Shown here: positions 1 to 14,455 of the stretch, in pieces
How the letters are laid out: each line of letters begins with the position of its first letter
How positions within the stretch are numbered: the first letter of the stretch is position 1
Assembly (NCBI GenBank): GCA_021325315.1
Contig: JAJPHK010000054.1
Location: 25,737 to 89,736 of the forward strand
Source: Alphaproteobacteria bacterium
Lineage (GTDB): Bacteria > Pseudomonadota > Alphaproteobacteria > Rhizobiales > Xanthobacteraceae
DNA length: 64,000 bases
Direction of reading: 5' to 3'
Translations under genes and position numbers: made by a program
The notes under the pieces: model-generated
The model's database searches: none
Seen by the model: the letters and a program-made list of their open reading frames with translations, nothing else
Told to the model about the DNA's origin: nothing

Positions 1-2024
1 GTAAATTTATGTCGGCGGCACGCGCTGCGGCTCGCATAAAACCCGTTATAGCCATCAAGAGTGGCCGTCACAAACAAGCAGCGGTTGCCGCGGCGACTCA
101 TACCGGGGCACTCGCTGGTTCCGATGCCGTTTACGACGCAGCGCTCGAACGCGCAGGCATTCTAAGAGTATTTGATCTTGACGAATTTTTTGATGCCGCC
201 GAAACGCTGGCGCGCACGCAACCATTTTCGGGCGATCGTCTCGCGATCCTTACGAATGGTGGCGGCGTCGGTGTTATGGCGGTCGATCGATTGAATGACT
301 ATAATGGAAAGCTAGCCCGGCTTTCTGACGCCGCGAAAAGTCAACTCGACGCATATCTTCCCGCGATATGGTCGCGGTCAAATCCGGTCGACATTGTAGG
401 CGACGCCGACGCTGACCGGTACGAGCTTGCGCTCAGGGCACTTCTTGCGGATTCGGAAAACGACGCGGTTCTTGTCCTGCAAGTGCCGACGGCGTTGTCG
501 TTGCCGATTGAAACTGCGCGGCGCGTCAGCGAAGTGGTGAAGAAAAGTCGCAATACTGTACGACCGAAACCGGTCTTTTGTGCTTGGGTCGGGGAAAATC
601 CGGAAACGGCGGATATCTTCGCGGAATCGAAAATCCCGCACTTTCTCACCGAAAGCGAGGCCGTGCGCGGATTTATGCACCTCGTTCGGTATCAAAAAGC
701 GCAAGAAGCGCTCTCGAAGGTTCCGCCGAGTCTCCCGAATGATTTTTCTCCCGATAGGGCGAGTGCACACGCCGTCATTCGAAAAGCCGTCGAAGAAAAG
801 CGAAAGTGGCTCGATCCCGATGAGATCGAAGCGTTGTTTGGGGCTTATCGTATTCCAATCCTCCCCGTCACGATTGCCGACACGCCGGAACATGCGGGAA
901 GAGCCGCCGCCGTCTTGCTCAAAACTTATAAGGCGGTCGTAGCCAAGATTTTTTCCCGCGACATTTTCCATAAATCGGATGTCGGCGGCGTAGAGTTGAA
1001 TCTCCGCGACGAAGAAGCAGTACATAATGCCGCGGCGGCGTTGCTCGAAAGAGCAAAAAAGACTCGGCCGGATGCCGTAATAAAAGGCGTGATCTTGCAG
1101 CCCATGCTGAAAAAACCAAACGGGCGGGAACTCATCGCCGGCATAGCAACCGACCCCACATTCGGACCGGTCGTATTGTTCGGGCGGGGCGGTACCGCAG
1201 TGGAAGTCATCAACGATAAGGCGTTAGGTCTTCCGCCGCTTGATCTGGGACTGGCGCAACGGTTGATCGGCAAAACCCGCGTTGCCCGTCGTTTGAAAGC
1301 ATACCGCAATATTCCCGCGGCCGATGAGAGCGCGATCGCGCTTACGCTCGTGAAGCTCTCGCAGATGGCCGCTGATTTTGCCGAGATTAGCGAAGTGGAT
1401 ATCAATCCACTCGTGGCGGACGAGGAGGGGGTAATCGCGCTGGATGCCCGCGTTGCGGTCTCTCCGCAAGCCAAGTCCGCTCCCACCAACCCGAATTTTG
1501 CAATCAAGCCCTATCCGAGCGAATGGGAGCGAGAGGCTGAATTCGGGGATCGAAAACGCATTTTTATACGTCCGATCCGTCCGGAGGACGAGAGTCTGCT
1601 TCGCAAATTCCTGGAGAAAATATCTGCGGAAGACCTTCGTTTACGCTTCTTTGCGCCGGTCAAGGATTTCAGTAGCGCTTTCATCGCACGGCTTACGCAG
1701 ATTGATTACAACCGCGCGATCGCGCTGATCGCGCTAGATGCCGATCGGCGGGAAATCCTGGGGGTGGTGCGGCTTCATATCGACGCGAATTTCGAAGCGG
1801 GTGAATATGCTGTTCTCGTTCGTTCTGACCTAAAAGGCCTCGGTCTCGGCCGGCTTTTGATGCAATTGATTATTGAGTACGCGCGATCCGTCAGGCTTCA
1901 GAGAATTGAGGGTGAGGTCCTAAGCGGAAATACGTCGATGTTGAAAATGTGCGAAGAGCTCGGTTTTAAAATATCGACTAGTCCCGACGACATGTCGATC
2001 AAGCTAGTAAAGCTCAGTCTATGA
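1..2024 (+). CDS. Pat/PatZ-type protein acetyltransferase (ADP-forming acyl-CoA synthetase-like domains fused to a C-terminal GNAT domain). The 5' end lies outside the window.
   Basis: The ORF frame is open to the window edge. The body is CoA-ligase/ATP-grasp-like (KPVIAIKSGR, LTNGGGVGV). The C-terminus has GNAT-like motifs (IRPIRPEDE ... GLGLGRLLM). Confidence 0.8.
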   Translation, partial: KFMSAARAAARIKPVIAIKSGRHKQAAVAAATHTGALAGSDAVYDAALERAGILRVFDLDEFFDAAETLARTQPFSGDRLAILTNGGGVGVMAVDRLNDYNGKLARLSDAAKSQLDAYLPAIWSRSNPVDIVGDADADRYELALRALLADSENDAVLVLQVPTALSLPIETARRVSEVVKKSRNTVRPKPVFCAWVGENPETADIFAESKIPHFLTESEAVRGFMHLVRYQKAQEALSKVPPSLPNDFSPDRASAHAVIRKAVEEKRKWLDPDEIEALFGAYRIPILPVTIADTPEHAGRAAAVLLKTYKAVVAKIFSRDIFHKSDVGGVELNLRDEEAVHNAAAALLERAKKTRPDAVIKGVILQPMLKKPNGRELIAGIATDPTFGPVVLFGRGGTAVEVINDKALGLPPLDLGLAQRLIGKTRVARRLKAYRNIPAADESAIALTLVKLSQMAADFAEISEVDINPLVADEEGVIALDARVAVSPQAKSAPTNPNFAIKPYPSEWEREAEFGDRKRIFIRPIRPEDESLLRKFLEKISAEDLRLRFFAPVKDFSSAFIARLTQIDYNRAIALIALDADRREILGVVRLHIDANFEAGEYAVLVRSDLKGLGLGRLLMQLIIEYARSVRLQRIEGEVLSGNTSMLKMCEELGFKISTSPDDMSIKLVKLSL

Positions 2025-2028
2025 CCGC

Positions 2029-2853
2029 CTAGTGCGACATCAGCACCGGAACTGTCATCGTCGCAAGAATTTGCGCGGTAACGCCACCGAAGATGAATTC
2101 TCGCAATCGGGTATGCCCGTAAGCACCCATCACAATAAAGTTAGCGTCTATGTCCGTGGCATGGGTCAAGATTACATTTGCAATGTCGATATCTTCAACG
2201 TCGATACGTTTTGTTTGCACGCTCAGCCCATGCCGCGAGAGATGCTGGGCGATCTCCGCGCCGGGCAAATCTTCGGTAACTTTGTTTGCTTCCGCCACTG
2301 TTATGATCTGAATTCTTTTCGCTTTACGCAAAAAGGGCATCGCGTCAGCCGTGGCCCGCGCAGCCTGCCTGCTTCCGTCCCAGCAAACGAGTGCGGTTTC
2401 GAATTTTGCTGGCTTCTCGTGAATGTAGGGAATAACGAATACGGGCCGCCCGCTATCGAACAATGCGGCTTCAATAAGAAAATCGTAATGGCTTGTACAC
2501 GTGTTCGCTTGCTCGACAACGCAGAGATCGTAATTCCGGCTAAACTTGGCAAACAAGCTAGCCGCGCCCGATACAGTAACTTGAGGCGAATATGATTCGC
2601 ATCGGACGGCGGTGTTTAATTGAAGAAATTTCTCTTTGGCTGTTCGGGCCGCTTGTTCGTTCGCGGCGCGCTCTTCTTCAATATAAGTTGCGGGCAACCC
2701 CTCGACGTTGCTCATCACGGAAATGATCGGTTCAAAGGCAAACGCAATTCCCGTTACATGAACGTTGAACTGCTCTCCAATTGAGAGAGCGTAGTCGCGC
2801 GCGCGGTCATGTTTCGTGGTCGTTGCCAGATTCACTACAAGATCGCGGATCAT
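2029..2853 (-). CDS. Tandem-domain universal stress protein (UspA family)
   Basis: Two USP domains, with the C-terminal motif GAYGHTRLREFIFGGVT. The start was moved to the internal ATG at 2853 (MIRDLVVNL); the longer ORF start overlaps the upstream gene. Last gene of the fixK operon. Confidence 0.85.
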   Translation of the reverse strand: MIRDLVVNLATTTKHDRARDYALSIGEQFNVHVTGIAFAFEPIISVMSNVEGLPATYIEEERAANEQAARTAKEKFLQLNTAVRCESYSPQVTVSGAASLFAKFSRNYDLCVVEQANTCTSHYDFLIEAALFDSGRPVFVIPYIHEKPAKFETALVCWDGSRQAARATADAMPFLRKAKRIQIITVAEANKVTEDLPGAEIAQHLSRHGLSVQTKRIDVEDIDIANVILTHATDIDANFIVMGAYGHTRLREFIFGGVTAQILATMTVPVLMSH

Positions 2854-2869
2854 TGCCGGCCTGTTACAA

Positions 2870-3283
2870 TTAATAATGCTCGACCGTGGATACTTTGTAG
2901 ACGTGCGTCTTTTCTTTCTCCCGGATCGAAACGTATTCGCCCGGTACGAGATGCTCATCTTCGAGGTGGAAGCCTTCTTCCTCGGCGTCCTCGCCCGATA
3001 TGTCGTACTGCAACGTCCAGCCGCCGTTTTTCCGATGTACGAGATGACCGATTTCGTTTGCTTGAGCTGGCCGGAATTTCAAAACGCGGTAATAATCGCG
3101 AAATTCTTTCCAGGGTTTCGTGTCTATCTTGCCGCTGGCATCCAGCGGTACCCAAAGGAGATAACCCGTATCGGATCGCCCTTCGGGACTCCCAGCTTCT
3201 CTCGCAAGCTCAAGCCGCACATGACGGAAGCTTTTTGGCAGATGAGGATTTGCTGTGGAGCGTGTCTTTAAAGCCGTAATCAT
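2870..3283 (-). CDS. Hypothetical 137-aa protein with no family recognised
   Basis: Intact ORF packed 8 nt downstream of fixK and 16 nt upstream of usp on the same strand. Acidic C-terminal half. Confidence 0.6.
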   Translation of the reverse strand: MITALKTRSTANPHLPKSFRHVRLELAREAGSPEGRSDTGYLLWVPLDASGKIDTKPWKEFRDYYRVLKFRPAQANEIGHLVHRKNGGWTLQYDISGEDAEEEGFHLEDEHLVPGEYVSIREKEKTHVYKVSTVEHY

Positions 3284-3291
3284 GCGACCCT

Positions 3292-4026
3292 CTACGCATT
3301 CAGCCGTGACAATAAATTTCGGTTGCGAAGAACTACACGCCGAGACGCTGGCAATTCGATCGCCTGCTCGTTTTCGAGTTGCGTGAAGGTGCGGGAAACG
3401 GTTTCAATCGTCAGACCGAGATAGTCGGCAATATCCTGCCGAGACATCGGAAGCTCGATCGTAAAGCTGCGGGCTCGCTTGGCCATTTCCAGCAAGAAAG
3501 CCGCAACGCGTTCAAGCGCATTTTTTCGGCCGAGCGTGATCATGAGGTTCTGGACATGATCGAGCTCACGCGCGGTGATGGACCAAAGTTCGCTTGCGAT
3601 TTCACTCTGACGCGCCGCCAGCGTGAGAACTGCGCTGCGTTTAATAACCAGTAGGCGAGATTTAACGACTGCTTCCGCGGAAAAATGATGTTCGCTTGAC
3701 GCTTCGATGCCGATGATGTCGCCTGGAAGATAGAAACCGTTGATTTGACGGCGGCCGTCGTCGAGAATTTTGTAAACGCGGACAGCGCCGCTGACGACTT
3801 TGTAAATAAATTCTGCTGATTCGCCTTCGCCATAGATTTCGTTGTTGCGGTCATATTCGATCTTGGCGCCCATCAACTCGAGTATTTCATCGAGGCTCCT
3901 TCGCTGATCGGTCGTCTTTGAGGCGGCATTTCGCTCTATCGTACGAATGAAAGGAGGGGCAGGAATTTTACCGCTTTCGCTTTGCGTCAACATGGTGCGT
4001 TCTCCTGTTGAGCCGCTTTTAAGCAA
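3292..4026 (-). CDS. fixK: Crp/Fnr-family transcriptional regulator, FixK type (no N-terminal Cys cluster)
   Basis: cNMP-binding-like beta-roll plus a C-terminal HTH (RQDIADYLGLTIETVSRTFTQL). No FNR-type cysteine motif. Divergent from fixLJ. The start could instead be the downstream ATG (MLTQSE). Confidence 0.9.
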   Translation of the reverse strand: MLKSGSTGERTMLTQSESGKIPAPPFIRTIERNAASKTTDQRRSLDEILELMGAKIEYDRNNEIYGEGESAEFIYKVVSGAVRVYKILDDGRRQINGFYLPGDIIGIEASSEHHFSAEAVVKSRLLVIKRSAVLTLAARQSEIASELWSITARELDHVQNLMITLGRKNALERVAAFLLEMAKRARSFTIELPMSRQDIADYLGLTIETVSRTFTQLENEQAIELPASRRVVLRNRNLLSRLNA

Positions 4027-4062
4027 TTGAAAAATCCCCCGAAATTCAGATCTTTCTCTTAA

Positions 4063-4086
4063 GTAGAATCCCGTAGGTTAGATCCC
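4063..4086 (+). promoter_or_regulatory. Candidate FixJ-binding tandem direct repeats in the fixK/fixL divergent intergenic region
   Basis: GTAGAATCCC (4063-4072) and GTTAGATCCC (4077-4086) are near-direct repeats 14 nt apart. The first resembles the S. meliloti FixJ high-affinity motif GTAGTTTCCC as I recall it. Confidence 0.35.
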
Positions 4087-4118
4087 TTAATTCGGCATGA
4101 TAAATTGCGGCACTGCTG

Positions 4119-5609
4119 ATGCATTCATTTCGTCCTGAGAATGAGAAAATCGCTGTGGCACGGTCATACGGTATCGCAATCCTGTGCGTTGCTCTTGCGA
4201 TGCTGGCCCAGACCATTCTGATTTCCCTTGGTGGCAGCGATGTTCGTTTTCTTTTTTTTACGCCGGCCGTGCTTCTTGCAGCTTTGATTGGCGGCGTAGG
4301 ACCGGGGATTTTTGCAACGGGGTTGAGCACTCTCTATCTGATTGCTTGGAAAGAGATCTGGCTCGAATTGCCCAAGGGGGAGGCGCTGCTGCTGCTGGCT
4401 TTCGCTGCGATCGGCATTGGGATCTCGATCGTAGGCGAACGTTTCAGGCGAATGCGGTTGAATGCGGCAGCCGTGACTGAAGATTTGCGTGAACGGGAGG
4501 CGCACCTCAAATCCATTCTCGATACGGTTCCGGATGCGATGGTCGTGATCGATACGGAAGGCATCATTCAATCATTCAGCGCCGCAGCGGAGAGACTATT
4601 CGGCTATCCTGCGGCAGAAGTCGTCGGCCAGAATGTCAAGATATTGATGCCTTCGCCTTACCGGCAAGATCATGACGGTTACATTCGCCGTTATCTCGCA
4701 ACAGGTGAGCGCAGAATCATCGGGATCGGCCGCGTTGTTGTCGGCGAACGAAAAGATGGGTCGACATTTCCAATGGAACTAGCTGTTGGAGAAATGAAAT
4801 CGTCCAATCGGCGCTACTTTACGGGATTCATTCGCGATCTTACCGAACGGCAAAAAACAGAGACGCGTTTGCAAGAGTTGCAGGCGGAACTCGTCCAGAT
4901 CTCGCGGTTGACCGCGATGGGAGAAATGGCCTCGACACTTGCCCATGAGTTAAACCAGCCCCTTTCCGCGATCGCGAATTATTTAAAGGGCTCAAGCCGG
5001 ATGCTGGAGGAGTTGAGCGGCGACGATGCGGCTGCGGTCCGCGGCGCCGTTAACAAAGCCGCTGATCAAGCATTGCGGGCCGGCCAAATCATCCGCCGTT
5101 TACGCGAATTCGTCTCCCAAGGGGAAAGCGAAAAACGTGTTGAAACCATTGCTAAGGTTGCAGAAGAGGCGAGTGCCTTGGCGCTTGTCGGCGCGCGTGA
5201 AACAGGTGTCAGAACAAGGGTCAATTTTGGAAATTTCGTCGATCTGGTGCTGGTTGACCGCATCCAAATTCAACAAGTGCTTGTAAACTTGATACGGAAT
5301 GCGTTGGAAGCGATGCAGAACAGCGATCGACGAGAACTCACTCTTACGACGAAAAAAACGAAGCCGGATACGATCGAAATTTCGGTTGCCGATACGGGAA
5401 CCGGTATCTCGCCAGAGATTGCCGAACATCTTTTCCAACCGTTCTTCACAACCAAGCCGCATGGAATGGGTGTGGGCCTTTCTATTTCGCGGGCGATTGT
5501 CGAAGATCATGGCGGACGAATTTGGATCGAACCGAATCCCGGCGGGGGTACGATTTTCAAGATTACCCTGCCGGCCATCGAAGCCGAGGAAGAAGCCGAT
5601 GCCGGGTAA
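4119..5609 (+). CDS. fixL: Oxygen-sensing haem-PAS histidine kinase FixL
   Basis: N-terminal TM segments. Haem-PAS signature ([52 protein letters not shown]). H-box (LAHELNQPL) and an HATPase_c domain. Confidence 0.93.
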
Positions 5610-6213
5610 GACAGTTCACGTGGTCGACGACGATGCCGCGATGCGCGATTCGTTACGCTTTCTGTTGAAATCGGCAAAGCTCGATGTGCGCACGTATGAG
5701 TCCGCCGATGCGTTCTTGCGCGCGCTTCCTGAAATTAAAGGAGGCTGCGTGCTTACCGACGTGAGGATGCCTGGATTGTCGGGAATCGACTTGTTGCACA
5801 GGTTGAAGAAAACGCCGATCGATCTTCCAGTAATCGTCATGACGGGCCACGGCGATGTCACTCTCGCCGTCGAAGCCATGAAGGAAGGTGCGATCGATTT
5901 TCTGGAAAAGCCCTTTGACGATGAGGTTCTGCTGAAGGCAACGCGTTCCGCGCTCGATCGCTATGAAAAAGATGCAAAAAAGGGCGCAGAGAAAGCCGAA
6001 ATCCTCTCAAGGCTCGCCTTGCTCTCGCAGCGCGAGCGGCAGGTTCTGGAGGGGCTCATCGCCGGTCAGCCGAATAAAGTAATCGCTGCCGATCATCAGA
6101 TCAGCCCGCGAACGGTCGAAATTTATCGGGCGCACGTCATGAGCAAGATGCAGGCGGATAGCCTATCGGAACTCGTCCGCATGGCGCTGGTCGCGGGCCT
6201 TTTTGAAAAATAG
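5599..6213 (+). CDS. fixJ: Response regulator FixJ (receiver domain plus LuxR-type HTH)
   Basis: The ATG at 5599 gives [12 protein letters not shown]... and overlaps the fixL stop by 11 nt. Receiver domain plus [24 protein letters not shown]. The longer listed ORF (5299) is an N-terminal artefact inside fixL. Confidence 0.93.
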
Positions 6214-6221
6214 GATTTTCA

Positions 6222-6235
6222 TTGCGCTAAATCAA
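6222..6235 (+). promoter_or_regulatory. FixK/FNR-type box TTGCGCTAAATCAA
   Basis: Matches TTG(A/C)-N6-(T/G)CAA. The centre at 6228.5 is 40.5 nt upstream of the nitroreductase ATG at 6269. Confidence 0.6.
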
Positions 6236-6268
6236 AACGTGAAATGATGGCTGGCGCAATAAATAGCG

Positions 6269-7312
6269 ATGCTGGCGAACATAAGCGCATCAGAAAATTA
6301 CGATCAGTCTGCAGATCCTTGGCAAGTAGACGCTGCCGCATTCCCCCGAAACGGAACGGCGATTGAGAAGCTGCGCTTCTTTCTCCGCTATGCTGTTCTC
6401 GCGCCGTCAAACCACAATAGCCAGCCTTGGGCAGTGCGCATTGCCCGGGATCATATCGATCTGCTCGCGGATCGTTCGCGTTCACTACCGATCTCGGATC
6501 CTTTCGATCGGGAGCTGATTATTTCATGCGGGGCGTTCCTTGCTTTTTTCGAGATTGCCGCACGCGCGTTTGGCTGTTTGCTGAGTATCGAACGGTTTCC
6601 CGACCGGGCAAACCAAGATGTCCTGGCCCGGATTTGGCTCAAACGCTACGATCCGGGGTCACCAAATTTGCCTCTGCTCGATGACATCCTGGCGCGCAGA
6701 ACCAATCGTCATGCCTTTGATTCCGCGCCCGTAACAAACGAGGAACAAGAACTTCTTTCCTTCGCAGCGGGTTCCGATCGTGCGCGCATTACCTGGATTA
6801 CTGACGGCACCGAAAAGGCATCTTTGGCGCAGATCATTATGGATGCGGACAAGGCTCAATTCGACAACCCATCCTTCTTGCGGGAGTTGGCCTCTTGGCT
6901 ACGCTTGCCAAAGACATCGGCGATGGATGGAATTCCGTCGACATCCATCGGCATTAGCGGCCTTACGGCCATATATATTGGCCCGCTGCTTGTACGAACC
7001 TTCGATGTCGGCCAAGGGAAAGCGGCTCGCGATCAGGAATTGATCAATAATTCGGCCGCTTTCGCTATTTTTTCGACGCCGTTCGACACTGAGCGCGATT
7101 GGCTCTTTTGTGGCGAGGCGCTGGGTTCATTTCTCTTGTGCGCCCAGCGGATCGGACTGCGTGTCTCCTATTTGAACCAACCTTGCGAGGTCGACAATAC
7201 TCGTTTCCGGCTGGCGATGCTGGGCTCGATGAAAAGCAATCCGCAGCTTGTTCTCCGGCTGGGACGAACCGAGTTCTCACCGCCTCCTACGCCGCGCCGG
7301 CGGCTAGTATGA
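6269..7312 (+). CDS. Acg-family (tandem nitroreductase-fold) FMN-binding protein
   Basis: About 347 aa with a nitroreductase motif (APSNHNSQPW). Size and architecture are typical of Acg/Rv2032-like proteins. Confidence 0.75.
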   Translation: MLANISASENYDQSADPWQVDAAAFPRNGTAIEKLRFFLRYAVLAPSNHNSQPWAVRIARDHIDLLADRSRSLPISDPFDRELIISCGAFLAFFEIAARAFGCLLSIERFPDRANQDVLARIWLKRYDPGSPNLPLLDDILARRTNRHAFDSAPVTNEEQELLSFAAGSDRARITWITDGTEKASLAQIIMDADKAQFDNPSFLRELASWLRLPKTSAMDGIPSTSIGISGLTAIYIGPLLVRTFDVGQGKAARDQELINNSAAFAIFSTPFDTERDWLFCGEALGSFLLCAQRIGLRVSYLNQPCEVDNTRFRLAMLGSMKSNPQLVLRLGRTEFSPPPTPRRRLV

Positions 7313-7331
7313 AACAGCGCCCATTCAAACG

Positions 7332-7508
7332 CTAAAATTTAATGCTGCTGCGCGTGGGGCTATGTTCGACGCGAATGATCTTTTTTTGGAGATAATTTTC
7401 GATAGCATCGACCCAGGGGGACGGCACGACGTAGACCCAAACAAGATAGCAAATCGCCCAAAGCAATATGATCGTAACTGTAGGATGTTTTCGAATGGCA
7501 TCAATCAT
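7332..7508 (-). CDS. Hypothetical small single-TM membrane protein (58 aa from the ATG at 7508)
   Basis: ORF with a hydrophobic segment (VTIILLWAICYLVWVYVV). The listed TTG start at 7526 lies upstream of the transcription start predicted from the FixK box. Confidence 0.3.
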   Translation of the reverse strand: MIDAIRKHPTVTIILLWAICYLVWVYVVPSPWVDAIENYLQKKIIRVEHSPTRSSIKF

Positions 7509-7543
7509 CGTGCATGCTCGTAGCAAAGGCGCGATACATCGGC

Positions 7544-7557
7544 TTGATCCAGATCAA
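7544..7557. promoter_or_regulatory. Consensus FixK/FNR box TTGATCCAGATCAA between divergent small genes
   Basis: Both half-sites are perfect (TTGAT / ATCAA) with 4-nt spacing, sitting in an AT-rich intergenic region. Confidence 0.75.
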
Positions 7558-7615
7558 CGAGATTCAGGTAATCCCGATTAATATATTTATAAATTGGCCA
7601 AACGGGTGTTTTCAA

Positions 7616-7720
7616 ATGACTGCTTTCGGGCAAGGAAATTTCGCTCCTTTCTTCACCGCCGTCGTTATTTCTGTTGTGGTGATCGCTTTATTTTTTGTGT
7701 TTTTCTCGCCGGCTTTATGA
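7616..7720 (+). CDS. Hypothetical 34-aa hydrophobic peptide translationally coupled to the cytochrome c gene
   Basis: MTAFGQGNFAPFFTAVVISVVVIALFFVFFSPAL. Its TGA stop overlaps the ATG of the next gene (ATGA at 7717-7720). Confidence 0.4.
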   Translation: MTAFGQGNFAPFFTAVVISVVVIALFFVFFSPAL

Positions 7721-8040
7721 TGATCTGCTGGCGATTTATGCTCGTATTGGGCATGTTCCTCGCGCTCTCATCAAACGGTATGCGAGCCAAAGCTGGCGAT
7801 GCTGTTCGCGGCCAGGAACTCGCTGCGATGTGGTGCAGTTCTTGTCACCTTCCCCGAGAAAGCAAGCCGCACAATATGATGGTGGCTCCGCCTTTCGAAG
7901 AAGTGGCGCAACGGAGCAATATAAACGCCAAAACGCTGGCTCAATTATTGATGTCACCTCACCCGGCAATGCCGGATCGCGGGCTTAGCCGCGAGGAGGC
8001 GGACGATATCGGAGCTTATCTCCTGTCGCTGCAGAAATAA
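7717..8040 (+). CDS. Small periplasmic class I c-type cytochrome
   Basis: Signal peptide (MMICWRFMLVLGMFLALSSNG), a CSSCH haem-binding motif, and a distal Met candidate (HPAMP). The start was set at ATG 7717 instead of TTG 7594. Confidence 0.8.
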   Translation: MMICWRFMLVLGMFLALSSNGMRAKAGDAVRGQELAAMWCSSCHLPRESKPHNMMVAPPFEEVAQRSNINAKTLAQLLMSPHPAMPDRGLSREEADDIGAYLLSLQK

Positions 8041-8071
8041 TCCGCAGCTCTACCGTCTCTCTGCAAGAAGC

Positions 8072-8085
8072 TTGAGCCAGATCAA
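8072..8085 (+). promoter_or_regulatory. FixK/FNR-type box TTGAGCCAGATCAA
   Basis: 13 of 14 positions are identical to the box at 7544. The centre at 8078.5 predicts a TSS near 8120, 20 nt upstream of ATG 8140. Confidence 0.65.
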
Positions 8086-8139
8086 GGGCGCTTACGGGGC
8101 GAACGGCTATTTTTGGAAAAATCTTTTAGGATTTTGCCA

Positions 8140-8883
8140 ATGTTTGTCGTCAACGTGATGATGCCCTATGCGATCACGATCAACCGCAGGGCGCCAATAC
8201 GCGACGCGATCCGGCTGATGCTGAAACACCAAATCAGCGGACTTCCCGTAGTTGATGACGAGGGCGCGCTGGTTGGCATCTTGAGCGAAAGTGATTTTTT
8301 GCACCGCGTGGAAATCGGCACCGAACGCCGCCGCAGCTGTTGGCTTGGCTTTTTGTTTAACGCCGAAAGACTTGCTTCAGAATATATTCATGACCATGGC
8401 CGAACGGTCGAAGACGTCATGACGAAAGCACCGGTGGTCACCGTCACGGAATTGACCGATCTTGAGAGCGCGGCCAAGTTGATGGAAGAGCACAAGATTA
8501 AGCGGCTCCCGGTCATGAGGGGAGATCGTATCATAGGCATATTGACGCGAGCGAGTTTGATCAAAGCCATTATGATGCAAGGAAAAAGCATGCCGATGCC
8601 GAAGAAAAGCGATCAGGAATTACGAGGCAGGATTTTCGAAGAGGTGCAACAAGCGCAATGGCTCGTCGCCCCGCTCCTCGATATTCAAGTGAAGAACGGG
8701 AACGCGCGGATAAGCGGAGTCGTTTACGATGAACGGCAGGAAGAAGCGATCAAGGTTCTTGTTGAAAACGTGCCGGGCGTGAAATCGGTGGCAAGCGAAT
8801 TGGCTTGGATCGAGCCTTTATCCGGGGCTGTAATTCTTTCCCCGGGGGAGGAGAAAACGCCGAAAATCATCACCCTGCATTAA
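8140..8883 (+). CDS. CBS-pair plus BON domain protein (copy 1)
   Basis: Two CBS motifs (ISGLPVVDDEGALVGILSESD; IKRLPVMRGDRIIGILTRASL) and a C-terminal BON-like segment (ISGVVYDERQEEAIKVLVENVPGVKSV). Confidence 0.85.
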   Translation: MFVVNVMMPYAITINRRAPIRDAIRLMLKHQISGLPVVDDEGALVGILSESDFLHRVEIGTERRRSCWLGFLFNAERLASEYIHDHGRTVEDVMTKAPVVTVTELTDLESAAKLMEEHKIKRLPVMRGDRIIGILTRASLIKAIMMQGKSMPMPKKSDQELRGRIFEEVQQAQWLVAPLLDIQVKNGNARISGVVYDERQEEAIKVLVENVPGVKSVASELAWIEPLSGAVILSPGEEKTPKIITLH

Positions 8884-8918
8884 GGTCGCCGCACGCCGTC
8901 ATTTAGAGAGGAGCTTTC

Positions 8919-9608
8919 ATGCTCGTTCTACACGCCATGATACCTATGGTGATCACTGTCTCACAGGATCAGACAATCGGCGACGCCATTAAAAAAATGA
9001 TCGAGTATCGGATCAGCGGCCTTCCGGTTGTCGACGCCGACGGCGCGCTTGTTGGTATGCTGAGCGAGAGTGATTTCTTGCGTCGGGCAGAATTGGGAAC
9101 CGGGCGCAAGCATCTGGGATGGCTCGCATATTTCATGCCCGGAAAGCTTGCCGGCGAATACGTTCACGAACACGGGAGAAGGGTGAGAGAGGTTATGACC
9201 CCCGATCCAATGACCGTCGACGAATACGCCCCGCTCGAAGATGCAGCGAAGATAATGGAAACAAATTACATCAAGCGGCTGCCTGTAACGAGGAAGGGGC
9301 GGCTAATTGGAATGCTAACCCGTTCGGACATGATGCGTGTTGTCGCCGAACGCGGACATGCGCTGCCGCCGCTCAAAGACAGCGATCAAGCGATTCGGCA
9401 ACACATACTCGAACAGGTTTCGCGACAGCCATGGCTACCGGGGTCGCCTGTCGATGTTACGGTCGACAACGGGAGGGTGACTCTGCTTGGAACCGTGTCC
9501 GACATACAACAAGCCAAAGCCTTGGAAGTGCTGGCCGGCAACGTGAAAGGCGTGTCGTCCGTGACGAACGGCATCCGTATTCTGCAACTGAAATTCGCAG
9601 AAGATTAA
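8919..9608 (+). CDS. CBS-pair plus BON domain protein (copy 2)
   Basis: Same architecture as copy 1 and clear paralogy to it. SD-like GAGAGGAG lies upstream. Confidence 0.85.
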   Translation: MLVLHAMIPMVITVSQDQTIGDAIKKMIEYRISGLPVVDADGALVGMLSESDFLRRAELGTGRKHLGWLAYFMPGKLAGEYVHEHGRRVREVMTPDPMTVDEYAPLEDAAKIMETNYIKRLPVTRKGRLIGMLTRSDMMRVVAERGHALPPLKDSDQAIRQHILEQVSRQPWLPGSPVDVTVDNGRVTLLGTVSDIQQAKALEVLAGNVKGVSSVTNGIRILQLKFAED

Positions 9609-11198
9609 ATGCCAAAACCGTTCGGATTTGGGCGAGACAGGAACCGGACGGATAAAAAAGACGTAGATACGCAGGATCGCGTCTTCGCCTATCTTGCCGA
9701 TCCGAGAACGCATGGCGGTCTCGAAGTAAAGCGAATCGATACGCACGCCTCCACCGTTTTCCTGGCCGGTAATCGCGCATACAAAGTGAAGCGAAGCGTG
9801 CGGTTTCCATATCTCGACTATTCGACGCCGGAGAAGCGGAAGGCCGCTTGCCTTCAGGAAGTAACTGTAAATCGTCGTTTCTCTCCCGATCTCTATCTGA
9901 GGGTCGCCGAGATTAAGGATTTCAACGGACGGCTAAGCCTTGAGGGAGAGGGCACACCAATCGAATGGGCCGTTGTTATGAAGCGATTCGATGAATCCCT
10001 TACGCTGGATCGGCTCGCGGAATACGGATCAATTACAAATGACCTCGCCGATGAACTTGGGCGAATGGTGGCGCGAATGCATGCGGATGCGCCGGTTATC
10101 CGCAGCGAGATGTGGCAAGGTTCGCTTTCAACTGTCATTGAGGAAAACGAAAGGGACCTGAAGACACATCCGGATCTATTTGATGCCGGGAAAGTTCGGG
10201 TTCTAACGCTGCAATCGAAAGAAAAACTCGAATCTAACAAGGCGCTGTTATCCGCACGCGCAGCAGCTGGTTTTGTGCGCGAAGGACATGGAGATCTCCA
10301 TCTCAGGAATATCGCCTTGATTGACGGAAATCCGACGCCTTTCGATGCGATCGAATTCGACCCATTGCTTGCTTCGGGCGATGTATTTTACGAACTTTCG
10401 TTTTTGCTGATGGATCTCTGGGAGAGGGGTGCGCGCGATTCCGCGAACATTGTGCTCAACCGATACCTGATTGAGGCCGATAGAGAAGAGCACCTGCCGG
10501 GGCTTGCGTTATTGCCGTTATTTTTGTCAATGCGCGCGGCGATACGTGCGAAAATTTGCGCGACCGAGTTAGCGCGTTCTGCCCGGGCCAACGAAAATCT
10601 CGCAAAGAGTGCGACGCGTTATTTCAATTTGGCTGTCGAGTTTTTGCGGCCTGATGCGCCGCGACTAGTAGTGGTAGGCGGCCTGTCGGGATCGGGAAAA
10701 TCTGCGCTTGCGAGATTGCTGGCATCTCATCTTTCCCCGGCGCCCGGAGCGGTCATTCTCCGCTCCGATATTGAACGAAAACAGCTCTTTCATGCGAGCG
10801 AAACGGAGCTGTTGCCAAGCCAAGCTTACAGATCCGATGTTTCTGGAAAAGTGTATGAGCGCCTCTTTCAGAAAACGGAGTCCGCGTTACAGGCCAAACA
10901 CTCTGTAATTCTTGATGCGACATTTCTGCATGAAGCGACGCGGGATGCAGCCCTAAAATTATCAAAAAGATGCGGCGTCCCGCTTGCGGGCCTGTATCTC
11001 GATGCGGATTTAAGCGTCCGTCTTGAACGTATCGCAAAAAGGAAAAGGGATGCATCGGATGCTGACGCAAAAGTAGCAATGCAGCAGAGAAGCCCTTCAA
11101 ACCTAAGCGCTGAGTGGACGCGTATCGACGCGAACGCCGATCTCAGCACCACCATGCTGCATGCTTTGCAGGCGATCGGCGTCACAGATCGGCAGTAA
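9609..11198 (+). CDS. Bifunctional protein: N-terminal APH/kinase-like phosphotransferase domain plus C-terminal P-loop (AAA_33-like) kinase domain
   Basis: Catalytic-loop-like HGDLHLRNI and FDAIEFD in the N-terminal part. Walker A (GGLSGSGKSA) in the C-terminal part. The ATG directly follows the TAA of the preceding CBS-BON gene. Confidence 0.8.
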   Translation: MPKPFGFGRDRNRTDKKDVDTQDRVFAYLADPRTHGGLEVKRIDTHASTVFLAGNRAYKVKRSVRFPYLDYSTPEKRKAACLQEVTVNRRFSPDLYLRVAEIKDFNGRLSLEGEGTPIEWAVVMKRFDESLTLDRLAEYGSITNDLADELGRMVARMHADAPVIRSEMWQGSLSTVIEENERDLKTHPDLFDAGKVRVLTLQSKEKLESNKALLSARAAAGFVREGHGDLHLRNIALIDGNPTPFDAIEFDPLLASGDVFYELSFLLMDLWERGARDSANIVLNRYLIEADREEHLPGLALLPLFLSMRAAIRAKICATELARSARANENLAKSATRYFNLAVEFLRPDAPRLVVVGGLSGSGKSALARLLASHLSPAPGAVILRSDIERKQLFHASETELLPSQAYRSDVSGKVYERLFQKTESALQAKHSVILDATFLHEATRDAALKLSKRCGVPLAGLYLDADLSVRLERIAKRKRDASDADAKVAMQQRSPSNLSAEWTRIDANADLSTTMLHALQAIGVTDRQ

Positions 11199-11867
11199 GG
11201 AGCTGCTTTGTCATCCGATCAACAACTTGCTTCACGCCCCACATGCTTTCTGCCGCAACTCGGATGGCACTTCGCTCAGAGTCGCTGCGAACCAAACCGG
11301 TCAGCTCGACGACGCCTTCTGTCACATTGATATTCACGAGGTCGAGATGCGCCCAAGGCTGATTTGCCAGATGAGTGAGCAGTTTCTCGCGGATATATCG
11401 ATCATCAGCTTCAATGCCGATAGCGCCGTGTAACTCTGCAAAAGCACGGATCAGATCGGCGCGGCTCGCGACGCCTACAACGCGGTCGTTTTCGACGACA
11501 GGCAAGCGCTTGATTGCATGCTTTTCCATGAGATCGACAAGGTATCGAATTGAATCGTTGGGATGAACGGACACAACCTTGGTCGTCATGATATCGCGGA
11601 TTTTTTTGGCGTGAGCTTTCACATATTCGCCGGCGAGAATTGCTTCCCCCACCAGCATTCGCAGCCACCAGGAACGCTGCTTTTCTGTCGAGATTTCGTA
11701 CCGTCGGATGAGATCGCGTTCCGTTACAATACCGCCAGCTTGCCGCTTTCTTCGACGACCGGAACGCCACTGATACGCTTTTCGGCCATCAGCTTGGCTA
11801 GCTCGATCACCGAAATGTTCGGCTTCACGGTAACCGCCGGCGCTATCATAATCTTGCGCACATTCAT
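11182..11867 (-). pseudogene. CBS-pair plus BON domain gene (copy 3) interrupted by a 1-nt frameshift near 11732
   Basis: ATG 11867 gives MNVRKIMIAPAVTVKPNISVIELAKLMAEKRISGVPVVEESGKLA, then a stop at 11726-11724. The -1 frame continues IVTERDLIRRYEISTEKQRSWWLRMLVGE... into ORF 11182..11658. One extra G in CTGGCGGTATT would restore a single roughly 228-aa ORF. Confidence 0.7.
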
Positions 11868-11941
11868 GATTGCCTTCGCGTAACTTATGAAAGTTTAGGC
11901 GGCTGCTCCGCGGGAATATTAATCTCGGTCAAACGAAGAAT

Positions 11942-11955
11942 GTGCGCTGAATCAA
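11942..11955 (-). promoter_or_regulatory. Degenerate FixK-like box GTGCGCTGAATCAA
   Basis: 12 of 14 positions are identical to the box at 6222, but the first T is replaced by G. It lies about 80 nt upstream of the CBS-BON copy 3 start. A second weak candidate, TTAATCTCGGTCAA, is at 11919-11932. Confidence 0.3.
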
Positions 11956-12029
11956 AATCTGCCTTTGGAGGCGCTAGTTTAGCTGCGGCATTCAATGACA
12001 GAAGAGCACCGAAGTTTCGGGTGCGCTTT

Positions 12030-12140
12030 TTAGTCGATGAGAACCGGTGGGAGCCAAATAAGCATAAGAGCGATTAAAACGCCCAAGAGAGTCAGGAACA
12101 CAATCGTTGCCGCCCAAGATTCCGCCTCAGCTCGATTCAT
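12030..12140 (-). CDS. Hypothetical 36-aa hydrophobic peptide
   Basis: My translation gives MNRAEAESWAATIVFLTLLGVLIALMLIWLPPVLID. It starts 10 nt downstream of the usp stop on the same strand. Too short for the supplied ORF track. Confidence 0.3.
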   Translation of the reverse strand: MNRAEAESWAATIVFLTLLGVLIALMLIWLPPVLID

Positions 12141-12150
12141 GGCGATCTCC

Positions 12151-12972
12151 TTAATGCGATAACAAACAGGCACAGGGTGGCTGATTGAGAAGGACTTCAG
12201 TCACGCCTCCGAATATCCATTCACCGATTTGGCTGCGGCCATACGCGCCGGCGACGATAACATCGGCGTCGTATTGTTTCGCTTGCAAGAGGAGCTCTTC
12301 CGCTACGGAATAATTTCCTGAATGTGCGACTTTAGGCTCTACAGTAATCTCATGACCGAGCAGATAAGAGCCGACATCGGATAGGATCTCGTGTACTTCT
12401 TGCTGAGTTTGTGCTTCTTCGCAGATTCCAAGAAGCAAAATATCTTTCGTTATTTTTAAAAAAGGCAATGCATTGGCAAGTGCGCACCGTGACTCACGCC
12501 CATCCTTCCAGGCGATAATCGCCCGACGAAAGGGAACGGTTTTGACGTGGTCGGGCACGTACAAAATCGGCCGCCCCGCCTGCATGATGATCGTGGCGGG
12601 ATTGAAGCGATGTTCGAGTGGCGCCTCGGAATCGGAACCGATGACGAGAAGATCGACGGATCTGAGCTTGTTTATGAAGGCTTTGAGAGGATAATCGTTG
12701 CTTCCGCGCCATTCGAGGTGCGGAGTCTTGCAAGTGGCAAGCTCTCGAAATCGCTTTTCCCGCTGTGTTAGTTCCGCGGTCGCATGTTCAAACTCAAGCT
12801 TTAAGAGTCGATTGCTGACCGGGCCATTGGGAAAAGCCTTGCTGGAAATAGATTGGCAGCCCAAGCCGACTAATTTTGCGTTCATTTTTTGAGTGAGTTC
12901 GCAAGCAATGTTGACGCGCCGATCAGATGCGGCGCCTGAACTCACATAGACACTAATCGAGGGATGGATCAT
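12151..12972 (-). CDS. Tandem-domain universal stress protein (UspA family)
   Basis: Two USP domains, C-terminal GAYGRSQIGEWIFGGVT. The start was set at ATG 12972 (MIHPSISVYV) because the longer ORF start would lie inside the FixK box. Confidence 0.85.
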   Translation of the reverse strand: MIHPSISVYVSSGAASDRRVNIACELTQKMNAKLVGLGCQSISSKAFPNGPVSNRLLKLEFEHATAELTQREKRFRELATCKTPHLEWRGSNDYPLKAFINKLRSVDLLVIGSDSEAPLEHRFNPATIIMQAGRPILYVPDHVKTVPFRRAIIAWKDGRESRCALANALPFLKITKDILLLGICEEAQTQQEVHEILSDVGSYLLGHEITVEPKVAHSGNYSVAEELLLQAKQYDADVIVAGAYGRSQIGEWIFGGVTEVLLNQPPCACLLSH

Positions 12973-13005
12973 GTTTATTTCTAAGCATCTTTCGACAGTG
13001 CGCTT

Positions 13006-13019
13006 TTGACGCAAATCAA
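13006..13019. promoter_or_regulatory. FixK/FNR-type box TTGACGCAAATCAA between divergent genes
   Basis: Matches TTGA-N6-TCAA. The centre at 13012.5 is 40.5 nt from the usp ATG (12972, minus strand). It is 41.5 nt from position 13054, just upstream of the AGGAGGAG SD of the plus-strand gene. Confidence 0.65.
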
Positions 13020-13066
13020 AGGATCCAACCTTATGAAGCCGCAGGAAAACACAGCAGGAGGAGAAT

Positions 13067-13462
13067 ATGCAGCAACATTTTCACATGGCGGTGTGGATCG
13101 ATCACCACGAGGCGCGCGTATTCAGCTTCAACGCCGATCAATCGGATAAGTTAGTCGTTCATCCCGAACACCCTGTCCGCAATATCCATCACAAAGCGAA
13201 TTCGATCGGCAGCGGGCATGCAGCCGAAGATCAGGATTTCTACGACAAGGTGGCTCAACACATTCGGCAAGCCGGCGCAATTCTTGTGGCTGGACCTGCG
13301 AACGCGCGTATCGAATTTATCAAGCATCTAAGATCGAATGACCCGGCTCTCGCACAAAAAATAAATACCGTCGAACGTACCGGTCGCTTCACCGACGCTG
13401 AATTTCTTGCGCATGCGCGAGAATACTTTTCTCGGCATGATCGCATGACACCCCTTCTATAA
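13067..13462 (+). CDS. Small conserved protein, host-attachment/eRF1-domain-like (databases often label homologues 'translational machinery protein')
   Basis: 131 aa. His-rich N-terminus (MAVWIDHHEARVF) and an AILVAGPANARIEFIKHL segment typical of that family as I recall it. Strong SD. Confidence 0.6.
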   Translation: MQQHFHMAVWIDHHEARVFSFNADQSDKLVVHPEHPVRNIHHKANSIGSGHAAEDQDFYDKVAQHIRQAGAILVAGPANARIEFIKHLRSNDPALAQKINTVERTGRFTDAEFLAHAREYFSRHDRMTPLL

Positions 13463-13477
13463 ACAGGGTTACACGAA

Positions 13478-14455
13478 ATGGTCCCGTATTTTGGCTCCCG
13501 AAGACGTTTCTCCGATCTTTCAGAATCCGAGATACTAGCGCTTGCCATCTCCTCCGAAGAGGACGACGCGCGCATCTATTCGTCTTACGCAGAGCAACTG
13601 CGGGAGAAGTTTCCCGCGTCTGCCCGGATTTTCGACCAGATGGCGGAGGAGGAAAATGATCATCGCCGTTTGCTGATTGACATCTATGAACGGCGCTTCG
13701 GAAAAACCATTCCGTTAATTCGGCGAGAGCATGTCGCTGGCTATTACTGGCGTCGGCCGATTTGGCTTGTTCAGAATCTGGGGCTGGAGCGTATTCGGCA
13801 GGAAGCCAGCCGCATGGAGGACGATGCTGCCGCTTTCTATACACGCGCCGCTCAATCCAGCTCGGATCCGGCAACTCGAAAGCTGCTTGGCGACCTTGCT
13901 GCGGCCGAAAGAATGCATGAGAGCAGGGCGGACAAGCTGCAGGTGGACGTGGCGGGAGGTGAACCGGGAAAGGAAGAGGAGCGTAAGGCTTTTCGGCAAT
14001 TCATTCTTACTTGGGTGCAACCCGGACTTGCTGGGTTAATGGATGGTTCTGTTTCAACACTCGCGCCGATTTTTGCAACGGCGTTCTCCACGCACTCGAG
14101 CTCAACGACATTTACAGTCGCACTTGCGGCCGCCGTGGGCGCAGGAATTTCAATGGGCTTCACCGAAGCAGCGCACGATGATGGTGTGATTTCTGGCCGT
14201 GGCTCGCCACTTAAGCGCGGCATCGCCTCAGGATTGATGACCGCATTAGGTGGTCTTGGTCATGCTCTCCCATATCTCATCCAGAATTTCTGGACAGCAA
14301 CTACGTTGGCAGTGGCGATCGTCTTCGTAGAATTGTGGGCGATTGCGTTTATTCAAAATCGTTACATGGAAACGCCATTTTGGCGGGCTGTGTTCCAGAT
14401 CGTGTTAGGAGGTTCGCTGGTTCTCGGAACGGGGATCTTAATCGGAGGAACGTAG
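13478..14455 (+). CDS. mbfA: Membrane-bound ferritin-like/VIT1 (CCC1) family iron exporter
   Basis: The N-terminal ferritin-like domain has ExxH motifs (EEENDHRRL, AAERMHESR). The C-terminal VIT1-type TM domain has about 5 hydrophobic segments. The length (325 aa) matches MbfA. Confidence 0.8.
   Translation: MVPYFGSRRRFSDLSESEILALAISSEEDDARIYSSYAEQLREKFPASARIFDQMAEEENDHRRLLIDIYERRFGKTIPLIRREHVAGYYWRRPIWLVQNLGLERIRQEASRMEDDAAAFYTRAAQSSSDPATRKLLGDLAAAERMHESRADKLQVDVAGGEPGKEEERKAFRQFILTWVQPGLAGLMDGSVSTLAPIFATAFSTHSSSTTFTVALAAAVGAGISMGFTEAAHDDGVISGRGSPLKRGIASGLMTALGGLGHALPYLIQNFWTATTLAVAIVFVELWAIAFIQNRYMETPFWRAVFQIVLGGSLVLGTGILIGGT

Follow-up and report, generated by a model that had tools for sequence, protein, structure and literature searches.

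A predicted FixLJ-FixK low-oxygen response island with DosR-like effector families in an uncultured Xanthobacteraceae bacterium

Genes of stress-protein families that also occur in the DosR dormancy regulon of Mycobacterium tuberculosis surround fixL, fixJ and fixK in a 64,000-nt stretch of DNA (contig JAJPHK010000054.1; hereafter the window) from an uncultured soil-type bacterium of the Xanthobacteraceae, an organism represented by metagenome contigs only. Do these genes form one low-oxygen regulon, and how far does the likeness to DosR extend? Genes were identified from a listing of open reading frames (ORFs) combined with Pfam, NCBIfam and PDB searches. We consider it likely that the block of approximately 13 kb at window positions 1-14455 is a self-contained FixLJ-FixK low-oxygen response island on the chromosome, a reading based on the statistics of FixK boxes, a conserved gene core, FixK2 experiments in Bradyrhizobium and the composition of the island; we infer each regulatory step and physiological role from sequence. 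An earlier note on this DNA had placed fixK, fixL and fixJ amid stress genes, and nearly all of its gene calls and coordinates agreed with the Pfam, NCBIfam and PDB results; absent from its list were a class I cytochrome c, two small proteins (h137 and h131) and the iron exporter MbfA, and it had not noted that the CBS proteins are fused to a BON domain.

In the proposed working of the block, a drop in oxygen would lead the haem-PAS kinase FixL to phosphorylate FixJ, and phosphorylated FixJ would switch on a divergent promoter and with it fixK, h137 and a tandem universal stress protein gene (USP1). FixK would then act at TTGA-N6-TCAA boxes centred approximately 40-60 nt upstream of start codons, turning on the nitroreductase-fold gene Acg (possibly also read through from fixLJ) and the small cytochrome c, the operon of CBS-BON1, CBS-BON2 and a two-domain kinase, a third CBS-BON gene (now dead), and the divergent USP2 and h131-mbfA units. 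The USP and CBS-BON proteins would serve as nucleotide- or ligand-binding stress proteins and, together with the Acg flavoprotein and the fused kinase, presumably adjust metabolism for survival of microoxia or anoxia.

FixK boxes, regulators and gene order

The 64 kb contain exactly three perfect TTGA-N6-TCAA boxes (at 7544, 8072 and 13006), every one of them intergenic and inside the block. A Markov simulation gave an expectation of approximately 0.32 perfect boxes per 12.4 kb (P(>=3) = 0.004), and approximately 0.03 would be expected in the 1158 intergenic bases of the block (Poisson P of about 4e-6). One-mismatch boxes precede Acg (6222) and the third CBS-BON gene, CBS3 (11919). The distances from box centre to ATG (61.5 nt for CBS1, 54.5 nt for h131, 58.5 nt for CBS3 and approximately 40 nt for Acg) would fit class II activation with short leaders; for cytochrome c the box centre lies approximately 190 nt upstream of a start codon that is uncertain (7594, 7720 or 7741; 100-107 aa in the gene calls of identical contigs).

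The boxes hold their position in two sister-lineage loci, L001 and L002, which have 92-94% DNA identity to the block. Those before cytochrome c and CBS-BON1 are kept in the same place, the CBS3 box is perfect in both (L001, 12312; L002, 10422), and the 61 nt from box start to h131 is equal in L001. The box TTGAGCCAGATCAA recurs identically in L178, a Rhizobiales metagenome-assembled genome (MAG), upstream of a 118aa-USP-Host_attach operon. In B. diazoefficiens the FixK2 box given for groEL5 (PMC9104804), TTGCGCTAGGTCAA, is near-identical to the Acg box TTGCGCTAAATCAA. Promoter-like distances and conservation in relatives support the predicted wiring through FixK boxes that the earlier note had proposed.

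FixL consists of an N-terminal membrane segment, a single PAS domain and a histidine kinase. Searches of PDB paired its haem-PAS domain (residues 120-255) with those of S. meliloti FixL (1D06, 5e-53) and B. japonicum FixL (1DP6, 2e-51), and its kinase core with FixL chimeras (1e-103). The proximal haem histidine presumably lies within an 11-residue motif present here, by comparison with His200 of BjFixL. The membrane-anchored form with one PAS domain is the S. meliloti/Caulobacter type; B. japonicum FixL is soluble with two PAS domains. FixJ has a REC domain and a LuxR/GerE helix-turn-helix (HTH) domain and is 74-75% identical to FixJ of three further loci (L093, L094 and L176). FixK has cNMP and Crp-type HTH domains with an E--SR recognition helix and zero cysteines, so it cannot carry an FNR-type Fe-S cluster; its top NCBIfam model is Caulobacter FixK (223 bits), and its true start is likely the ATG at 3993 (233 aa), as called in the orthologue of L001/L002. 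The sequence TTAAGTAG in the fixK / fixLJ control region resembles the S. meliloti FixJ-site consensus, GTA(A/C)GTAG.

Features of the block are given below by window position; control sites carry no strand.

9-2024, plus strand: Pat-like protein acetyltransferase (Pfam ATP-grasp_5, Succ_CoA_lig, Ligase_CoA_2, Acetyltransf_1), its 5' end cut by the window
2029-2853, minus strand: tandem USP1, 274 aa (Pfam Usp, 1.8e-12; best PDB match 3LOQ)
2870-3283, minus strand: h137, 137 aa, uncharacterised, conserved partner of fixK
3292-4026 (or 3292-3993), minus strand: FixK (Pfam cNMP_binding, HTH_Crp_2, Crp)
3994-4118: divergent fixK / fixLJ control region, containing TTAAGTAG
4119-5609, plus strand: FixL (Pfam PAS, HisKA, HATPase_c, DUF4118; FixL matches in PDB)
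5599-6213, plus strand: FixJ (Pfam Response_reg, 2.8e-29; GerE, 6.9e-20)
6222-6235: one-mismatch FixK box TTGCGCTAAATCAA, centre approximately 40 nt upstream of the Acg start codon
6269-7312, plus strand: Acg-family double-nitroreductase-fold protein, 347 aa (NCBIfam NF047509; PDB 2YMV)
7544-7557: perfect FixK box TTGATCCAGATCAA, upstream of the cytochrome c gene
approximately 7741-8040, plus strand: small class I cytochrome c with a CSSCH motif (Pfam Cytochrome_CBB3, Cytochrom_C)
8072-8085: perfect FixK box TTGAGCCAGATCAA, centre 61.5 nt upstream of the CBS-BON1 start codon
8140-8883, plus strand: CBS-pair and BON protein 1 (Pfam CBS, 1.3e-28; BON, 6.2e-9)
8919-9608, plus strand: CBS-pair and BON protein 2 (Pfam CBS, 3.9e-33; BON, 2.3e-16)
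9609-11198, plus strand: two-domain kinase, 529 aa (Pfam APH, AAA_33)
11182-11867, minus strand: third CBS-pair and BON gene, frameshifted (fragments 11724-11867, 47 aa, and 11182-11658, 158 aa)
11919-11932: one-mismatch FixK box TTAATCTCGGTCAA, centre approximately 58 nt upstream of the CBS3 start codon
12151-12972, minus strand: tandem USP2, 273 aa (Pfam Usp, 7.9e-11)
13006-13019: perfect FixK box TTGACGCAAATCAA, in the divergent USP2 / h131 promoter region
13067-13462, plus strand: h131, small protein with sub-threshold resemblance to eRF1 domain 2 / baeRF
13478-14455, plus strand: MbfA iron exporter, rubrerythrin and VIT1 (NCBIfam NF045676 FeExpMbfA, 538 bits, cut-off 450)

Judged by spacing, the likely transcription units are fixK-h137-USP1 (gaps of 8 and 16 nt), fixL-fixJ(-Acg), in which fixJ overlaps fixL by 11 nt, CBS1-CBS2-kinase (gaps of 35 and 0 nt, the kinase start abutting the CBS2 stop codon) and h131-mbfA (gap of 15 nt). 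Between Acg and cytochrome c, a 58-aa ORF on the minus strand (window 7330-7506, placed from L001 7724-7900) is called in several related contigs; it had no domain match and may be spurious. An Rfam scan of the window returned a single tRNA and no regulatory RNA in the block.

Conservation, composition and decay

Conservation of the neighbourhood was surveyed with the kinase as anchor in 80 GTDB genomes and 5 contigs (85 loci, 10-kb neighbourhoods). In these neighbourhoods fixL and fixK accompanied the kinase solely in two near-identical relatives, tandem USP homologues did so in 37 of the 85 loci and h137 in 31, mostly as a divergent neighbour; a perfect FixK box stood approximately 80 bp upstream of a tandem USP in about 17 loci. 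From this survey, the regulon is therefore dispersed in most Xanthobacteraceae, and a widespread occurrence of the full 12-kb arrangement was rejected, since fixLJK did not lie beside the kinase in any of the 85 loci outside the lineage of the window.

Anchoring on Acg recovered a deeper core. The arrangement of h137 behind fixK, divergent from fixL, fixJ and Acg, is kept in L093 and L094 at identities of 67-69% for FixL, 74-75% for FixJ, 55-64% for FixK, 54% for Acg and 45-49% for h137, and L176 retains fixJ followed by Acg, so that Acg lies directly 3' of fixJ in L001, L002, L093, L094 and L176. The gene h137 is directly downstream of fixK in four lineages: the window with L001/L002, L093 (6533-6946), L094 (6538-6930) and L178 (17757-18092). 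L178 holds a near-full gene set within 13 kb in another order with five intergenic perfect boxes, comprising CBS-BON, CMD-Acg-cytochrome c-CBS, host-attachment-USP, fixJ-fixL, fixK-h137-hemN and another USP. The homologous module of L093 adjoins NnrS and fixNOQP. In L177 (4749-12925), a divergent operon of S30AE+CSD (hibernation factor), archease, RtcB and PolX is separated from the pair Acg-Cpn60 by a perfect FixK/FNR box, and the locus also has a boxed CBS-BON gene, a P-type ATPase and PGA_cap. A scan of metagenomes with an Acg profile gave matches that, among those listed, were all at approximately 40% identity, from diverse environments, with no linkage to FixLJK, USP or CBS, and was uninformative for the close clade. 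The conservation of the neighbourhood that the earlier note called for was thus seen in related and moderately distant genomes (L001, L002, L093, L094, L176 and L178), and the linkage of fixK, h137, fixLJ and Acg across lineages is most simply that of a functional unit.

The block differs in composition from its surroundings, with a GC content of 0.51-0.56 and a GC content at third codon positions (GC3) of 0.52-0.66, as against a GC3 of 0.69-0.84 in the rest of the window (14681-64000), with a sharp step at the block edge. The DNA outside the block encodes chromosomal housekeeping functions (MutL, PGI, glycerol kinase, GlpD, thiolase and pseudouridine synthase). MutL is 90% identical to Xanthobacteraceae MAG proteins, the block kinase is at most 55% identical to homologues beyond its own lineage (Xanthobacteraceae and related MAGs), and the top identity of Acg outside its own lineage is approximately 62%. 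Similarity to the sister lineage (L001, L002) begins at window position 1 and breaks off at 13501; to the left the island extends past the start of the window, and its right edge lies at mbfA. Phage-type integrase genes stand beside the homologous modules of L094 and L176. By these features the block is probably a horizontally acquired accessory island. A plasmid origin was rejected, as a near-identity search of the whole block against a plasmid collection came back empty and the remaining window consists of chromosomal genes.

Beyond the block, the MFS and PGA_cap genes at 14.7-17.5 kb have an intermediate GC3 (0.64-0.70). The PGA_cap (CapA-like) gene (16298-17458, plus strand), 2 kb past the block, is 55% identical to PGA_cap of L177 (20057-21098), which lies at the edge of the Acg/RtcB/CBS-BON cluster there; the region upstream of the window copy showed no FixK box.

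Decay has affected different members in the two lineages. All three CBS proteins are CBS-pair and BON fusions of approximately 230-250 aa, and the earlier note had counted three such proteins; those at 8140-8883 and 8919-9608 are intact, and the third is a frameshifted pseudogene. The length of 11182-11867 is not a multiple of three and the reading frame is split. Independent metagenome contigs with an identical kinase show this split too, and L001 and L002 have an intact copy of 228 aa; because the split recurs in independent contigs and the gene is intact in a 92-94% identical relative, we regard CBS3 as a real pseudogene. A sequencing error was rejected because independent assemblies carry the same frameshift. 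USP2, intact in the window, is fragmented in L001 (12473-12790) and L002 (10583-11394). Such reciprocal decay of paralogues (CBS3 here, USP2 in the sister lineage) suggests redundancy among the duplicated effectors.

The block amounts to a compact form of a known system, the FixK2 low-oxygen regulon of Bradyrhizobium. Direct FixK2 targets with boxes in B. diazoefficiens include USP, CBS, nitroreductase, cytochrome c, host-attachment, translational-machinery, Hsp20 and GroEL genes (PMC9104804), and their induction in microoxia has been published as well (PMC6515984). Among the targets are the USP gene bll4644, the CBS gene blr6074 and the cytochrome c gene blr4241, and the nitroreductase gene blr4652 is 95-fold down in a fixK2 mutant (PMC9104804, PMC6515984). 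The core FixK regulon of Bradyrhizobiaceae, as predicted by Dufour et al., takes in CBS, class I cytochrome c and a 'putative kinase', and the same authors cite blr6071 (kinase) and blr6074 (CBS) as FixK2-dependent (PMC2908626). One FixK2-controlled region, blr4644-4659, combines ppsA, a pfkB-family kinase, USP, CBS and nitroreductase (PMC6515984, PMC9104804). The statement of the earlier note that the block is functionally undescribed accordingly fails at the level of the regulon, given these published targets (PMC9104804, PMC6515984, PMC2908626), and stands for the biochemical roles of the effectors.

The two systems share the cascade of haem-PAS FixL, FixJ and a CRP/FNR-type FixK, the TTGA-N6-TCAA box (even the variant TTGCGC...TCAA) and, by published descriptions, tandem USP, CBS, nitroreductase, small cytochrome c, 'putative kinase', GNAT and baeRF-like members, and the hosts belong to the same family. 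They differ in layout, with sensor, regulator and about ten targets in a 13-kb low-GC block here and in several chromosomal regions in Bradyrhizobium; this block has no fixNOQP, hemN or other respiratory targets. The block FixK has no cysteine and hence lacks the oxidation-sensitive cysteine of FixK2 (Cys183).

A second low-oxygen locus invites comparison. The lxa locus of Burkholderia cenocepacia is induced by low oxygen, comprises 50 genes over 50 kb and is rich in USPs (PMC6127331, PMC12071387). By description it resembles the block in being a discrete locus with a proposed path from FixLJ to a FixK/Anr-type regulator and a palindromic box of the TGAT...ATCA type that is related to the FixK/Anr site; it differs in being betaproteobacterial and in having FixLJ encoded outside the locus. 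An analogy of FixLJ/FixK with DosRS/DosR, convergent evolution included, has been published for lxa (PMC6127331, PMC12071387).

Effector proteins and the DosR comparison

The Acg protein matched the NCBIfam model NF047509, 'Acg family FMN-binding oxidoreductase (Rv3131_FMN_oxido)', at 282.7 bits (cut-off 199; model positions 2-315 of 319) and aligned over its full length (residues 38-345) with MsAcg (2YMV) at 4.5e-23. On these matches it is a true member of the Acg family (Rv2032, Rv3127, Rv3131 and MsAcg), which is named after DosR-regulon proteins. Some Acg homologues (approximately 45% identity; P0183, P0191, P0194, P0231 and P0235) are fused to a hemerythrin/RIC domain (PF01814), fusions that would again tie the Acg fold to O2/NO-binding modules.

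The kinase joins an N-terminal APH/choline-kinase-like domain with the motif HGDLHLRN to a C-terminal P-loop kinase domain with the motif GGLSGSGKS, and both catalytic motifs are invariant in 16 homologues. No homologue of the kinase was found in PDB. Foldseek searches with its AlphaFold model (pLDDT 84.9) returned choline, MTR, APH and malto-kinases for the N-domain and polynucleotide and gluconate kinases for the C-domain. The family also occurs on plasmid pDK1 of Rhodococcus sp. DK17 (L179, 220645-239880), in the order GNAT-kinase-pfkB-ppsA...CBS-USP, where the kinase (504 aa) is 31% identical to the window kinase over 79% of the latter (3e-25), and on R. leguminosarum pRL22b4 (L180, 27649-47178), clustered with CBS, USP, host-attachment, FtsH, P-type ATPase, Hsp20, BON and another USP.

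The earlier note had read the gene set as a mirror of the M. tuberculosis DosR regulon. In both systems a haem sensor kinase acts through a LuxR/NarL-type response regulator, and the M. tuberculosis regulon is likewise enriched in USPs and in Acg-family, CBS and APH-like proteins. Rv3131, an Acg-family gene, lies beside dosS in M. tuberculosis, to be compared with fixLJ-acg here. The sensor domain differs, however (PAS here, GAF in DosS/DosT), there is an extra tier here in that FixJ acts via FixK, and no equivalents of hspX, tgs1, narK2 or fdxA were found in the block. The block is not a DosR regulon in the strict sense, since it has a FixL sensor and FixK boxes, the DosR motif itself not having been scanned for.

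Taken family by family, the mirror is uneven, being strong for Acg (282.7 bits; 2YMV) and no closer than the superfamily for the USPs and the CBS proteins. In searches of single sequences against Rv2623 (2JAX/3CIS), USP1 gave no match at E<0.01 and USP2 none at E<10, and a profile of 16 USP sequences reached E=0.2, below archaeal and Thermus USPs. USP1 itself gave a two-domain alignment to the tandem USP 3LOQ, and the relation of the USPs to Rv2623 appears to be at the level of the superfamily, with only the tandem architecture shared. CBS2 matched Rv2626c (1XKF/1Y5H) at 5e-7 over a single CBS motif, at about rank 31 and behind many unrelated CBS proteins, a generic match; Rv2626c (HRP1) is a stand-alone CBS pair of approximately 140 aa, in contrast to the longer fusion with BON here. 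For the kinase, a parallel to the DosR regulon is plausible because the Rhodococcus homologue sits in a GNAT-kinase-pfkB-ppsA-CBS-USP cluster; Rv2004c has reported phosphotransferase activity (PMC8701281). By sequence comparison, the DosR mirror appears genuine at the level of recruited families, and orthology-like for Acg and probably for the kinase.

Of the small proteins, h137 found nothing in Pfam (also at relaxed thresholds) or NCBIfam, and its single-sequence AlphaFold model (pLDDT 51) was too poor for a structure search. For h131, Pfam gave hints of eRF1/baeRF at E of about 0.07, under threshold, and we regard it as a putative baeRF-like protein; the 'translational machinery protein' and 'host attachment protein' among the FixK2 targets of B. 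diazoefficiens belong to baeRF families. The gene mbfA begins 15 nt after h131, behind the 13006 box, and iron export may in this way be coupled to low oxygen; the sister lineage lacks mbfA at this position and has a 49-aa ORF there instead. The GC3 values of mbfA (0.56) and of the Pat-like gene (0.58) are both island-like.

The Pat-like gene, with ADP-forming acyl-CoA synthetase-like domains and a C-terminal GNAT domain, is convergent to USP1 and lies within the part of the block shared with L001, and we infer that it is a regulon member. GNAT genes recur near USP or kinase genes elsewhere, with USP followed by GNAT in two Xanthobacteraceae loci (L003, 887-2288; L005, 4998-6458) and GNAT followed by kinase in Rhodococcus pDK1 (L179, 8399-10476). 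The B. diazoefficiens genes bll6068 (GNAT) and bll6069 (USP) are both induced in microoxia. Mycobacterial Pat acetylates a USP, and by analogy acetylation of the block USPs is a lead.

Competing accounts and what the block may mean

One competing account explains the DosR resemblance by shared ancestry through horizontal transfer, in which sub-clusters of Acg, two-domain kinase, USP, CBS, pfkB, ppsA, RtcB/archease, hibernation factor and PGA_cap would have passed between Actinobacteria and Proteobacteria and come under each host's own oxygen-responsive regulator. We regard this as possible, though doubtful. The Rhodococcus pDK1 cluster of GNAT-kinase-pfkB-ppsA...CBS-USP, the gene set of B. diazoefficiens blr4644-4659 and the combination in L177 of a box with Acg, RtcB, CBS-BON and PGA_cap all speak for it, as do the foreign composition of the island and the integrases beside related modules (L094, L176). 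The putative DosR-regulon counterparts of the L177 families are Rv0079, Rv2630 (archease), Rv2631, Rv0574c and Rv1997, with Acg and Rv2626c as further parallels. Rv0079, Rv2631, Rv0574c (poly-glutamate-synthase-like) and Rv1997 are listed in the DosR regulon in a review that describes DosR-regulon genes as conserved across environmental bacteria, possibly via horizontal transfer, and so lends the account further support (PMC5309233). Against this, proteins from different phyla share little identity (30-40% at most), the USPs lack significant similarity to Rv2623, the CBS architecture is different and the Acg homologues of approximately 40% identity, among the matches listed, were unlinked to FixLJK, USP and CBS; USP and CBS are also so common that any stress regulon may recruit them independently. 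A related and equally tentative idea is that the block is a mobile plug-in cassette for hypoxia survival, a foreign island with a full set whose effectors would come from an old 'dormancy toolkit', one that has spread horizontally, is shared with DosR and was rewired to different oxygen sensors in different phyla; in other carriers this toolkit would add RtcB/archease, a ribosome hibernation factor, PGA_cap and a P-type ATPase.

Several observations weigh against the low-oxygen island with its own FixLJ-FixK circuit. The FixK score lies below the NCBIfam equivalog cut-off of 300 bits, and the FixJ-site resemblance in the fixK promoter is a tentative lead. The Acg box is imperfect, and since a perfect box before Acg is absent in L093, L094 and L176, Acg may just belong to the fixLJ transcript. 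The decay of one effector here and of another in the sister lineage argues against a need for every member. Finally, FixK boxes are inseparable by sequence from those of FNR, FnrN and NnrR, and because the boxes look alike another host CRP/FNR regulator could drive the block genes.

This last point is the ground for an account in which the boxes are served mainly by another such regulator of the host (FixK2, FnrN or NnrR) that answers to another signal (NO or redox). The box TTGA-N6-TCAA is common to FNR, FixK, DNR/NnrR and Anr (PMC2908626, PMC12071387), Xanthobacteraceae usually own FixLJ-FixK2, and the position of the L093 module next to NnrS and fixNOQP would suit it. We nevertheless judge it unlikely, for the island supplies its own regulator, and fixK stays linked to h137, fixLJ and Acg across protein identities of 45-75%. 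A chance juxtaposition of abundant stress families beside a two-component system, with no common regulation, could appeal to USP and CBS being among the commonest bacterial families and to the two near-identical relatives that alone, among the 85 loci, have fixL and fixK near the kinase, but it is effectively refuted by the box statistics, the conservation of boxes and core synteny, and the FixK2 dependence of the same families in Bradyrhizobium.

With the low-oxygen island thus preferred, the gain in knowledge is incremental and the novelty is modest, as the regulon membership of these families and the DosR analogy have already been published. Three points go further than the literature searched: fixLJ is repeatedly linked to acg and fixK to h137, one foreign block packages sensor, regulator and effectors together, and related loci overlap more widely with DosR families (RtcB/archease, hibernation factor and PGA_cap). 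The block would place a complete oxygen-sensing cascade and its effectors (Acg, CBS-BON, kinase and h137) on a small piece of transferable DNA, and because of this compact layout it is a convenient unit for probing effector function. The recurrent fixLJ-acg linkage suggests that Acg works closely with haem oxygen sensors, which may help with the long-standing question of Acg function.

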